Notes: a model not told the origin generated them from the letters alone. Positions 1-6,185 are shown, counted from the first letter of the stretch. The stretch: 6,185 nt of DNA from Escherichia coli (GCF_003334255.1 NZ_QOWU01000102.1), one strand, 5' to 3'. Numbers and translations are program-made.

Positions 1-22
1 TGTGATGAACCGTCAGAAATGA
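1..22 (+). CDS. 3' end of an upstream gene, probably the terminase small subunit (partial, 5' end outside window)
   Basis: Frame 2 is open from the window edge (V-M-N-R-Q-K-stop) and its TGA at 20-22 overlaps the ATG at 19-21 of the large terminase as ATGA, the usual coupled TerS/TerL junction. Only 6 codons are visible, so the identity is inferred from position alone. Confidence 0.3.
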
Positions 23-1680
23 CCGGGACCGAACAACGTCTGTTCATCATGACTAAACTGAGCAATCCCTGGTGGCGCCTCAATCATCTCTACAAAATAC
101 AGAACGAAAAAGGTGAACTGGTCACCTTCAGAATGCGACCGGCGCAACGTCAGTTGTTTCGTAACATGCATAATAAAAACATTATCCTGAAAGCGCGCCA
201 GCTGGGATTTTCCACAGCCATTGATATTTATCTTCTCGACCAGGCATTATTCATTCCGCATCTCAAATGCGGGATCGTCGCTCAGGATAAACAGGCTGCC
301 AGTGAAATTTTCCGCACAAAAATTGCTGTACCGTTTGATCATCTCCCTGACTGGCTGAGAGCCTCATTCACCATCGTTGAACGTCGTAGCGGTGCCAGCG
401 GTGGCTATATCCTGTTTGGTCACGGCTCGAGTATTCAGGTGGCAACCTCATTTCGCTCAGGTACGGTGCAGCGCCTGCATATCTCAGAACACGGCAAAAT
501 TTGCGCGAAATATCCGGCTAAGGCGAAAGAGCTGCGAACCGGTACGCTTAATGCCGTCTCTGATGAATGCATTATTTTTGATGAATCCACTGCTGAAGGT
601 GTGGGTGGCGATTTTTACGAGATGAGTAACCGGGCACAGGAAATCACTGCATCAGGGCTGGCGCTGACGCCACAGGATTATAAATTCCATTTTTACGCCT
701 GGTGGCAGGATCTCAAATACAGCGCCAGAGTGCCGGAAAGCGGACTTAAGCTGTCACGGGAAAAAACAGCGTATTTTTCTGCGGTTGAAAAAGCAATGAA
801 CATCACGCTTACCGATGAGCAGAAACACTGGTACATCTGCAAGGAAACTGAACAGCGTGAGGAAATGAAGCAGGAATTTCCCTCAACGCCACAGGAGGCG
901 TTTCTGACGTCAGGACGACGGGTGTTCAGTGCGGAAAGCACGCTGCAGGCAGAGTCATTCTGTTCGCCACCGCTGATTGTTTATGACATTGAACCGGTTA
1001 CAGGAACGAAGACCAAGGCGCAGTCTCTGCGTGACGGGAATAAAGCCGAACAGCACCGGACGCTGATGAATTATCTGCTGGTCTGGGAGCTGCCGGATCC
1101 GGATGAAGAGTATGTATGCGGAGCAGATACCGCTGAGGGGCTGGAGCACGGAGACCGCTCATCGCTGGATATCATCAGATGCAGTAATGGTGAGCAGGTG
1201 GCTCACTGGTTTGGTCATCTCGATGCGGAGCTTTTCGCTCATCTCATTGCGCAGGTCTGCCGTATGTACAACAACGCGTTTGTGGGGCCGGAGCGTAACA
1301 ATCACGGACATGCCGTTATCCTGAAACTCAGGGAACTCTATCCGACGCGTTATATCTACAACGAACAGCACCTTGACCAGGCATATGACGACGATACGCC
1401 CCGTCTTGGCTGGCTGACAACCCGCCAGAGTAAACCGGTCCTGACAGAGGGAATGAAAACGCTGCTGAATAACGGCCTGTCGGGGATCCGCTGGTCGGGC
1501 ACATTATCAGAAATGAACACCTACGTTTATGACGCGAAAGGCTCCATGAATGCACAGGAAGGCTGTTTTGATGATCAGCTTATGAGCTACATGATTGCCC
1601 AGGAGATGCGCGCCAGAATGCCGGTGAGGGTAAAACAGAAAACGGATAAACGCAGAACCACACACTGGATGGCTCACTGA
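19..1680 (+). CDS. Terminase large subunit (ATPase plus nuclease), 553 aa
   Basis: Long ORF from the track. N-terminal half has a P-loop-like segment ILKARQLGFST (nt 184-216) and a Walker B with catalytic Glu, IIFDEST (nt 571-591). C-terminal half has RNase-H-like acidic motifs: YVCGADTAEG (nt 1111-1140), HGDRSSLD, and CFDDQLMSYM near the C-terminus. It sits directly upstream of a portal-sized gene. Start codon is uncertain: frame 1 is also open to the window edge, so the true start could lie upstream. Confidence 0.88.
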   Translation: MTGTEQRLFIMTKLSNPWWRLNHLYKIQNEKGELVTFRMRPAQRQLFRNMHNKNIILKARQLGFSTAIDIYLLDQALFIPHLKCGIVAQDKQAASEIFRTKIAVPFDHLPDWLRASFTIVERRSGASGGYILFGHGSSIQVATSFRSGTVQRLHISEHGKICAKYPAKAKELRTGTLNAVSDECIIFDESTAEGVGGDFYEMSNRAQEITASGLALTPQDYKFHFYAWWQDLKYSARVPESGLKLSREKTAYFSAVEKAMNITLTDEQKHWYICKETEQREEMKQEFPSTPQEAFLTSGRRVFSAESTLQAESFCSPPLIVYDIEPVTGTKTKAQSLRDGNKAEQHRTLMNYLLVWELPDPDEEYVCGADTAEGLEHGDRSSLDIIRCSNGEQVAHWFGHLDAELFAHLIAQVCRMYNNAFVGPERNNHGHAVILKLRELYPTRYIYNEQHLDQAYDDDTPRLGWLTTRQSKPVLTEGMKTLLNNGLSGIRWSGTLSEMNTYVYDAKGSMNAQEGCFDDQLMSYMIAQEMRARMPVRVKQKTDKRRTTHWMAH

Positions 1681-5002: not shown

Positions 5003-5011
5003 ACTGACGTA

Positions 5012-6185
5012 ATGACCACAGTAACAACAGCCCAGGCGAATAAGCTGTATCAGGTGGCGCTTTTCACGGCTGCCAACCGCAACCGCTCAATGGTGAATAT
5101 ACTCACTGAACAGCAGGATGCACCAAAAGCAGTTTCGCCTGACAAGAAAAGCACGAAGCAGACCAGTGCCGGTGCACCGGTTGTGCGAATCACGGACCTC
5201 AACAAACAGGCCGGTGATGAAGTGACGTTCAGCATCATGCACAAACTCTCTAAACGTCCGACGATGGGGGATGAGCGCGTTGAAGGCCGTGGTGAAGACC
5301 TCAGCCATGCTGATTTTTCCCTGAAAATTAATCAGGGCCGTCACCTGGTGGATGCGGGCGGACGTATGAGCCAACAGCGTACGAAGTTCAACCTGGCATC
5401 CTCTGCCAGAACGCTGCTGGGTACGTACTTTAACGACCTGCAGGACCAGTGTGCGATAGTGCATCTTGCCGGTGCCCGCGGTGATTTTGTTGCTGATGAC
5501 ACCATTCTGCCAACGGCAGATCACCCTGAATTCAAAAAAATCATGATCAACGACGTACTGCCGCCGACGCATGATCGTCATTTTTTCGGTGGGGATGCGA
5601 CGAGTTTTGAGAGTATTGACCAGTCTGACCTGTTCACTCTTGCGCTGGTCGATAATCTCTCGTTGTTTATTGACGAGATGGCTCATCCGTTACAACCGGT
5701 ACGCCTGTCCGGTGATGAGCTGTATGGCGAAGATCCGTATTACGTCCTCTACGTCACGCCGCGTCAGTGGAATGACTGGTACACCTCCACGTCCGGCAAG
5801 GACTGGAACCAGATGATGACGCGTGCCGTAAACCGCTCAAAAGGGTTTAACCATCCGCTGTTCAAAGGCGAATGTGCGATGTGGCGCAATATTCTGGTCC
5901 GTAAGTATGCGGGGATGCCGATCCGTTTCTATAAGGACTCAAAGGTCCTTGTATCGAAAAACGATATGGCAGCAACCACAGAGGAGAAGCAGGCCAAGAC
6001 CAACATCGACCGTGCCATGCTGCTGGGGGCTCAGGCGCTGGCGAATGCGTACGGCCAGAAGGGCGGCGGCCACTTCAACATGGTTGAGAAGAAAACGGAT
6101 ATGGATAACCGTACTGAGATAGCAATCAGCTGGATCAACGGTCTGAAAAAAATCCGTTTCCCCGAGAAGAGCGGCAAGATGCAGG
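5012..6185 (+). CDS. Putative major capsid (coat) protein, 5' portion (about 391 codons, continues past window end)
   Basis: I translated frame 2 from ATG 5012 by hand and it stays open to the window edge (MTTVTTAQANKLYQVALFTAANRNRSMVNILTEQQ ... KIRFPEKSGKMQ). The six-frame track does not list it because there is no stop inside the window. It has the strongest RBS in the window and sits directly after the scaffold gene. The composition is that of a globular, mixed alpha/beta protein. I cannot assign a specific coat family by eye. Confidence 0.7.
   Translation, partial: MTTVTTAQANKLYQVALFTAANRNRSMVNILTEQQDAPKAVSPDKKSTKQTSAGAPVVRITDLNKQAGDEVTFSIMHKLSKRPTMGDERVEGRGEDLSHADFSLKINQGRHLVDAGGRMSQQRTKFNLASSARTLLGTYFNDLQDQCAIVHLAGARGDFVADDTILPTADHPEFKKIMINDVLPPTHDRHFFGGDATSFESIDQSDLFTLALVDNLSLFIDEMAHPLQPVRLSGDELYGEDPYYVLYVTPRQWNDWYTSTSGKDWNQMMTRAVNRSKGFNHPLFKGECAMWRNILVRKYAGMPIRFYKDSKVLVSKNDMAATTEEKQAKTNIDRAMLLGAQALANAYGQKGGGHFNMVEKKTDMDNRTEIAISWINGLKKIRFPEKSGKMQ

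Follow-up and report, generated by a model that had tools for sequence, protein, structure and literature searches.

A known Sepvirinae head-gene cassette in Escherichia coli and its candidate scaffolding protein

The stretch of Escherichia coli DNA analysed here (6,185 nt from GCF_003334255.1, NZ_QOWU01000102.1; "the window" throughout) is almost certainly the head-morphogenesis cassette of a Sepvirinae prophage, of the type carried by the short-tailed lambdoid phages 933W, Sp5, phi24B and POCJ13, and it is not a mosaic. Most Sepvirinae phages of this type carry Shiga toxin (Stx) genes. Listing and translation of the open reading frames (ORFs) gave four co-directional genes on the + strand, encoding the large terminase subunit (TerL), the portal protein, a 335-residue acidic protein and the major capsid (coat) protein (Table 1). 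A preliminary description of the window, made from the sequence alone, had read this order as TerL, portal, scaffold and coat; the order stands, and the third product is probably the scaffold. The cassette is already known and common, and it adds nothing new in itself, having been studied genetically in Sp5 and structurally in phi24B. Our contribution is a small one, namely an argument that the 335-residue protein (ORF61 of Sp5, gp70 of phi24B), and not ORF65, is the scaffold. Taken whole, the statement that this is a known, non-mosaic Sepvirinae cassette in which the 335-residue protein acts as scaffold seems to us quite probable.

Lineage and unity of the cassette

When the window was compared with phage genomes by megablast, 194 records matched and 190 of them covered at least 80% of it in one place. 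The closest DNA was that of Escherichia phage PhiR12_3 (99.5% identity), followed by Shigella phage POCJ13 (Sepvirinae, Diegovirus; 97.2-97.3%), while 933W, phi24B and many Stx2a phages were about 92-93% identical; the range across some 190 Sepvirinae phage genomes was 92-99.5%. Against each of POCJ13, 933W, phi24B and PhiR12_3, the alignment was a single high-scoring segment pair (HSP) over positions 1-6185. Protein identity across the four products was 99.7-100% with the deposited phage PhiR12_3 and 97-99% with POCJ13. Their identities to the products of 933W and phi24B were 96.0% (TerL), 96.9% (portal), 89.9% (335-residue protein) and 93.6% (coat).

The window therefore has the same genes in the same order as 933W, Sp5 (VT2-Sakai), phi24B, POCJ13 and PhiR12_3, at 90-100% protein identity, and its differences from the short-tailed Stx phages of the Sepvirinae are allelic only. 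It lies nearer the PhiR12_3/POCJ13 (Diegovirus) branch than 933W (Traversvirus). The stretches most diverged from its Sepvirinae relatives are the gene for the 335-residue protein and the 3' part of the coat gene. Because genes, order and sequence are near-identical, the genetics of Sp5 (PMC5155283) and the cryo-electron microscopy (cryo-EM) of phi24B (bioRxiv 10.64898/2026.04.10.717836) apply directly to this cassette.

The preliminary description had raised the possibility of a mosaic, in which a P22-type, barrel-bearing portal is joined to a coat and a scaffold of another lineage. Three features could be read in this way. The portal belongs to the Pfam family P22_portal and the coat falls outside the P22 coat family; of the four P22 head proteins only the portal is weakly similar in pairwise comparison (23% over 270 residues); and the DNA, taken in 200-nt bins, is anywhere from 82 to 100% identical to that of 933W. 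What was found for the four proteins together does not fit such a junction: all of them gave concordant, high-identity hits (90-97%) to the characterised phages 933W and phi24B, and the whole window formed one collinear HSP with about 190 genomes. Gene identities, collinearity and concordant divergence are direct observations here. We considered the 82-100% patchiness as a sign of a mosaic junction and rejected it, as the alignment is unbroken; it fits homologous exchange of alleles among close relatives and not replacement of a module.

Distant relatives gave the same answer. Searching phage genomes by tblastn returned 420 records for the portal and 415 for the coat. The two sets were nearly the same and shared their host genera, with 104 Vibrio phages, the Stx phages, Pseudomonas H66/F116-like phages, 31 Ralstonia GP4-like phages, 10 Burkholderia Bcep22-like phages and others in both; P22 and Sf6 were absent from both lists. 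The identities of the two proteins fell in step and in the same rank order, from Vibrio phage D458 (portal 47%, coat 51%) through Achromobacter CF418P1 (38% and 38%), Pseudomonas H66 (34% and 33%) and Burkholderia Bcep22 (29% and 33%) to Ralstonia Gamede (28% and 32%). Portal and coat also share their best solved homologue, Ralstonia phage GP4, named as the closest structural homologue in the phi24B preprint, which treats capsid and tail as one conserved module (bioRxiv 10.64898/2026.04.10.717836). P22 is about equally remote for all four proteins, and the portal similarity merely stays detectable longer. The only gene to change type among the distant relatives is that for TerL, which had no match in CF418P1 or H66. 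A mosaic origin is thus highly improbable. The four genes form one co-inherited module. The label "P22-like" suits the portal only at the level of its wide Pfam family, and the pairing of a barrel-bearing portal with this type of coat is normal in the lineage.

It could be argued that the cassette comes from a defective, decaying prophage, so that the gene calls do not describe a working assembly pathway. The coat gene is cut by the window end, which leaves its completeness out of sight here, and an IS3-family element interrupts the coat gene of some relatives. On the other hand, none of the four reading frames is broken anywhere in the visible sequence, and the products are as close to those of PhiR12_3 and POCJ13 as given above. 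We regard decay as very unlikely.

Among 5,426 complete E. coli genomes, 424 had the same block; a single genome held as many as three copies, and four of the places were on plasmids. A near-identical copy in strain DETEC-S792 is split by an IS200C-family element.

The 335-residue protein as candidate scaffold

By its coordinates, the 335-residue protein is ORF61 of Sp5, H0131 of VT2-Sakai, L0115 of 933W and gp70 of phi24B. It matched phrog_479 ("unknown function") and no Pfam or NCBIfam domain, and all phage records and protein database entries searched label it "hypothetical". The protein has a net charge of -32 and an isoelectric point (pI) of 4.5. An AlphaFold2 (AF2) model built on a 21-sequence alignment was almost entirely helical, elongated and non-globular, with a predicted template modelling score (pTM) of 0.25. 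It comprises a short N-terminal helix, a disordered segment (residues 23-74; predicted local distance difference test score, pLDDT, <50), a small hairpin (77-88), a 41-residue helix (89-129), a confidently predicted cluster of helices (192-250) and, at the C-terminus, three short helices (303-334, pLDDT 72-85).

The family of this protein is large, with 849 clusters at 50% identity (E <= 0.001). The 123 representatives that we aligned were 306-391 residues long and carried no extra domain. The preliminary description had remarked on an unusually long acidic N-terminal domain. The acidity is real, residues 1-76 holding 22 acidic and 3 basic residues (net -19), but it is a family trait and not unusual: in the 123 representatives the region before the DGKHxIPY motif was variable in sequence and always acidic, with a median net charge of -19 (range -40 to -8). 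The most widely shared part of the protein is its C-terminal 70 or so residues, where the motif VPxSPS[DE]LG ... M..M[ST]D..I is kept across the family. With hhalign, residues 262-334 matched the C-terminus of Pseudomonas phage H66 gp44 (98.3% probability, E = 2.3e-14), the product of the ORF immediately 5' of the H66 coat gene. A similar motif can be seen at the C-terminus of Bcep22 gp52, for which the hhalign match was not significant (E = 0.063). By analogy with P22 gp8, we infer that these conserved helices may be the coat-binding end.

The gene stands between those for portal and coat in the window, as does its counterpart in distant relatives. In every relative examined (D458, CF418P1, H66 and three metagenomic contigs, whose family members are only 24-27% identical to the 335-residue protein), the family gene was directly upstream of the coat homologue. 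A position directly 5' of the coat gene and an elongated, acidic, helical build are classic scaffold traits.

Genetic data are available from Sp5, in which the late genes were deleted singly (Mondal et al. 2016, PMC5155283). In that phage the portal is encoded by ORF60 and the major capsid protein by ORF62. Deletion of ORF61 left no head-like particles and no packaged DNA, and the defect was complemented, making the gene essential; an anti-ORF61 antibody failed to label virions, and ORF61 was given no role (PMC5155283). ORF65 was named the scaffold, its deletion having given spiral coat polymers (PMC5155283). ORF65 is H0135, that is, L0119 of 933W (8148-8819) and vb_24B_34 of phi24B (8173-8844), which appears as gp64 in the proteome table of the phi24B preprint. 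There gp64 is a dodecameric adaptor ring attached below the portal, and the main text never mentions a scaffold (bioRxiv 10.64898/2026.04.10.717836). The two published assignments, "scaffolding" for ORF65 in PMC5155283 and neck adaptor for gp64 in the 2026 preprint, are in conflict. If the ORF65 homologue is the neck adaptor, ORF61/gp70 is left as the scaffold candidate. The ORF65 deletion may have acted indirectly or through polarity, given the 125-nt overlap between ORF64 and ORF65. Among the papers covered by our literature search, none names ORF61/gp70 as the scaffold.

The virion proteome of phi24B also bears on this question. In the batch sample, 35 peptide-spectrum matches came from gp70, compared with 29 from the adaptor gp64 (12 copies), 101 from the portal (12 copies, 714 residues) and 1,674 from the coat (540 copies) (bioRxiv 10.64898/2026.04.10.717836). 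Our own crude, length-normalised spectral counting gives about 10 copies of gp70 per virion, an estimate of a kind to which the phi24B authors attach a 1-3-fold error. This is far below the hundreds of copies expected in a scaffold-filled procapsid. The P22 procapsid, for comparison, holds about 250-300 scaffold copies. In the supplementary gel data for phi24B, gp70 peaked one slice below the 45-kDa coat and two above a 35-kDa fragment of gp84, which is where the full-length 36.5-kDa acidic protein should run, and it would therefore be uncleaved. Contamination by procapsids, or retention of a few copies, could account for the residual gp70 in virions.

Several points weigh against a scaffold role. 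The protein showed no sequence or profile similarity to P22 gp8 (BLASTP and phmmer; hhalign probability 0.5%), and Foldseek found no meaningful match to its AF2 model in the PDB (best E = 0.36), as would be expected of an elongated, helical model with so low a pTM. A scaffold that exits fully should not occur in purified virions, where gp70 is present at a low level. An adaptor role alone would not account for the spiral polymers seen on deletion of ORF65. Moreover, P22 lacking its scaffold makes aberrant shells and spirals, which differs from the absence of particles seen without ORF61.

One possibility is that the 335-residue protein is a minor internal head protein, or a portal-associated factor kept in the virion, and that scaffolding is done by ORF65 or by the coat itself. 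The abundance of gp70 in purified phi24B virions, about that of low-copy tail and neck proteins, would suit such a role, as would its lack of homology to known scaffolds, and spiral coat polymers like those of the Sp5 ORF65 deletion are typical of scaffold defects. Yet the ORF65 homologue gp64 has been modelled as the ring below the portal, and the phi24B cryo-EM model has no gp70 density in capsid, portal or tail. Loss of ORF61 abolishes head-like particles, whereas loss of the portal in Sp5 still gives shells (PMC5155283). The place of the gene directly upstream of the coat gene and the build of its product also speak for a scaffold. P22, too, still makes shells when its ejection proteins are lost. 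We consider a non-scaffold role unlikely, and ORF61/gp70 to be likely the scaffolding protein.

Assembly without a protease, and comparison with known phages

No protease domain was found by Pfam, PHROGs or NCBIfam in the four window proteins, and none was found in the head genes just downstream of the window or in the 123 diverse relatives of the 335-residue protein. Two further possibilities were considered and rejected. A coat delta domain has no room, as a single Pfam capsid domain covers residues 2-403, and a fusion of protease and scaffold is contradicted by domain coverage and by the family-wide scans; no protease fused to the coat was found either. The preliminary description, which had proposed a P22-style pathway with a separate scaffold and no proteolysis, agrees in this respect with the Sp5 study, where an "apparent absence of a protease" was noted and a protease-less, P22-style assembly proposed (Mondal et al. 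2016, PMC5155283). In the phi24B structure the coat can be traced from Thr2 and is therefore uncleaved (bioRxiv 10.64898/2026.04.10.717836). Assembly without a protease, a coat unlike that of P22 and the unity of the head module had thus all been described before.

A pathway can be proposed in which the T=9 geometry, the uncleaved coat, the portal barrel and the requirement for the ORF61 homologue in head formation are taken from the literature. Coat and 335-residue scaffold would co-assemble around the portal into a T=9 procapsid, the coat forming its shell with neither N-terminal cleavage nor chainmail crosslinks. TerL, with the small terminase subunit (TerS), would package DNA through a dodecameric portal with a C-terminal helical barrel. 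During packaging the scaffold would exit uncleaved, as in P22, phi29 and T7, and the cement protein and later the gp84 fragment would bind the expanded shell. The scaffold role, the exit without cleavage and the binding of coat through the conserved C-terminal helices are the steps that we infer. It is plausible, as a speculation, that the acidic scaffold is displaced from the basic interior of the coat by incoming DNA.

The nearest well-described systems outside the Sepvirinae are GP4 and the Bcep22-like (Cimandefvirus) podophages (8h89, 8jov). They have in common with the window lineage the order portal, ORF of about 320 residues, coat and cement protein, as well as a T=9 shell (as in GP4 itself) built from an uncleaved coat protein that has an HK97 fold and a long N-arm. 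They differ in being only 28-33% identical, in their fibres and in having extra small genes, including one for a CsrA-like regulator, between the ORF of about 320 residues and the coat gene. Their ORF is not significantly similar to the 335-residue protein, but its C-terminal motif is comparable.

P22 has the same gene order (gp2, gp1, gp8 and gp5 for TerL, portal, scaffold and coat) and likewise no prohead protease. Its scaffold is separate, and in both systems it is expected to exit uncleaved. Its portal has a C-terminal barrel and belongs to the same Pfam family (PF16510), at only 23% identity over 270 residues. No pairwise similarity was found between TerL and gp2, the 335-residue protein and gp8, or the coat and gp5. 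The view that the coat is not of P22 type therefore holds: BLASTP and phmmer gave no significant match to gp5, and its Pfam family is PF13252. P22 is T=7 and its coat has an insertion domain. The window lineage is T=9, and the description of the phi24B coat lists N-arm, E-loop, P-domain and A-domain only. The N-terminus of gp8 is also acidic (net -8 over 76 residues). Charge polarity is reversed: P22 pairs an acidic coat (pI 5.0) with a scaffold whose last 35 residues are basic (+6), whereas the window pairs a basic coat (pI 8.8) with a scaffold candidate whose last 35 residues are acidic (-5).

A third comparison is with the N4 gp56 family of capsids. The window coat scores above the curated cutoff of this family, and the match is remote (residues 56-387). 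To our knowledge, the rest of the N4 virion module is unrelated to the window lineage. Related Schitoviridae capsids are also T=9 (PMC11654681).

These comparisons allow a broader and much more tentative proposal: ORF61/gp70 might be the scaffold of the whole 933W/GP4-type T=9 podophage lineage, with a charge polarity opposite to that of P22. In this reading the strongly acidic scaffold, with its disordered poly-acidic N-terminal tail, would lie along a basic coat interior and be displaced by DNA, with some ten copies retained, perhaps at the portal. If this were true, it would found a scaffold family of about 850 clusters that has no name so far, and the published assignment of ORF65 as scaffold would be wrong.

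The practical consequences concern typing and annotation. From the coat type one can predict a T=9 head, about 74 nm across, with room for roughly 57-62 kb, which explains why the DNA carried by these Stx phages exceeds that of lambda. In head-gene typing, such prophages should be grouped with the 933W/GP4 lineage and not with P22. All the databases searched leave the probable scaffold gene "hypothetical", and the single scaffold assignment in print is to a gene for a neck adaptor. Correcting the annotation would help a medically important group of phages and some 850 related protein clusters.

Features of the four genes and their relatives

Table 1. Coordinates of the features in the window and the evidence for each.
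Feature	Position	Strand	Basis
Large terminase subunit TerL, 553 residues from ATG at 19	19..1680	+	phrog_2; T4 gp17 nuclease match
Portal protein, 714 residues	1680..3824	+	PF16510, phrog_156, GP4 portal 8jov
Portal C-terminal helical barrel, residues 610-696	3507..3767	+	boundaries from phi24B cryo-EM model
Intergenic region, 157 nt, two hairpins and a GGAG ribosome-binding site before the next gene	3825..3981	+	terminator scan, RNA fold
335-residue acidic protein, predicted all-helical, probable scaffold	3982..4989	+	position, phrog_479, AF2, literature
Acidic N-terminal region, residues 1-76; short conserved helix, then disordered acidic linker	3982..4209	+	charge count, AF2, family alignment
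Conserved C-terminal segment, residues 284-335, three short helices	4831..4986	+	family alignment, hhalign, AF2
Major capsid (coat) protein; 391 of its 404 codons seen, the rest beyond the end of the window	5012..6185	+	PF13252, TIGR04387, GP4 8h89

The GC content of the window lay between 0.48 and 0.56, with no compositional break. A scan with Rfam found no RNA family in the window, and a promoter scan was at chance level (5 found, 4.7 expected).

TerL matched PHROG families of large terminase subunits (phrog_2, 6.6e-52), and its C-terminal half matched the nuclease region of T4 gp17 (4.7e-8); Pfam and NCBIfam found nothing in it. The start at 19 is that of the annotated terminase in RefSeq POCJ13. 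In 933W, phi24B and PhiR12_3 the gene is annotated from 45 nt further upstream (window position -26), giving a 568-residue form, and the true 5' end may therefore be outside the window. TerS is encoded just upstream of the window.

The portal ATG overlaps the TerL stop codon as TGATG, and the two genes are translationally coupled in this way. The portal matched PF16510 (P22_portal) at 4.1e-129 and also phrog_156, and had no NCBIfam match; its best solved homologue is the GP4 portal (8jov, 1.2e-63). Its counterpart in phi24B, gp72, has been solved by cryo-EM, with a barrel spanning Pro610-Val696 (bioRxiv 10.64898/2026.04.10.717836). The same residues in the window are rich in Ala, Gln and Glu and look helical, and alignments of the portal to distant relatives mostly stop near residue 610.

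In the spacer downstream of the portal gene there is a terminator-like hairpin of 10 pairs (3841-3866) with a T run behind it, and another long hairpin lies at about 3868-3917. Its predicted RNA fold has an energy of -55.1 kcal/mol (z = -2.59 relative to shuffled sequences). Given its position in the middle of a late operon, the terminator-like hairpin presumably does not stop Q-antiterminated polymerase. A terminator is annotated at a similar position in H66. In the relatives, small accessory genes accumulate in the slots between portal and scaffold-type gene and between scaffold-type gene and coat. In these slots one metagenomic contig has an ORF with a Lockin domain (PF26760), D458 and another contig have ORFs of 98-126 residues, and Bcep22-like phages have CsrA-like regulators; the portal-to-scaffold slot of the window holds the 157-nt spacer only.

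Three long antisense ORFs overlap the scaffold and coat genes, at 3976-4365, 4536-5027 and 5087-5686 on the - strand (129, 163 and 199 residues). The counterpart of the first is an annotated coding sequence in phi24B (vb_24B_27c), and phi24B has a shorter antisense coding sequence annotated inside its coat gene (vb_24B_30c). The portion of the six-frame proteome table for phi24B that was examined lists no products from those frames, and these ORFs are probably spurious.

The coat gene is preceded by an AAGGAG ribosome-binding site. Its product matched PF13252 (Phage_capsid_3, 9.9e-88) as one domain over residues 2-403, and TIGR04387 (N4-gp56 family) with 79.3 bits against a cutoff of 60, over residues 56-387. 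The Prokaryotic Genome Annotation Pipeline (PGAP) gives the N4-gp56-family name to this coat in E. coli genomes. Its best solved homologue was the GP4 major capsid protein (8h89, 4.2e-39, residues 51-403). The phi24B coat, gp69, to which it is 93.6% identical, has an HK97 fold with N-arm, E-loop, P-domain and A-domain, is resolved from Thr2, and shows no cleavage and no isopeptide chainmail (bioRxiv 10.64898/2026.04.10.717836). The phi24B capsid is T=9 and about 74 nm across, its cement protein is gp67 and its decoration protein the N-terminus of gp84, and the authors note lysine-rich coat loops facing the capsid interior (bioRxiv 10.64898/2026.04.10.717836). Judged by these relatives, the window coat should be an HK97-fold protein of the N4-gp56/Phage_capsid_3 family that builds a T=9 shell of 540 copies. 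Our own AF2 model of the coat was too poor to serve as evidence (mean pLDDT 42.7, from an 8-sequence alignment); Foldseek still placed GP4 8h89 first (E = 6e-10, template modelling score only about 0.3). The claim about the fold therefore rests on homology and on the phi24B preprint.

In the Stx2a phage Stx2_07Y06, the coat gene is interrupted by an IS3-family element of about 1.27 kb (orfA and orfB; NF033516, 7e-100) at 5612-6877. The insertion is some 100 nt after the coat start of that phage, which corresponds to window positions of about 5109-5111, and three other Stx2a phages gave the same two-piece alignment. Prophages with a coat gene interrupted in this way should be unable to make capsids. 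In another phage record an insertion sequence is noted in the ORF61 homologue. Identity between the window and Stx2_07Y06 was 98-100% in the bins covering 5201-5600, compared with 82-83% in those covering 4801-5000 and 5601-6000. This suggests a patch of recombination between Sepvirinae lineages inside the coat gene.

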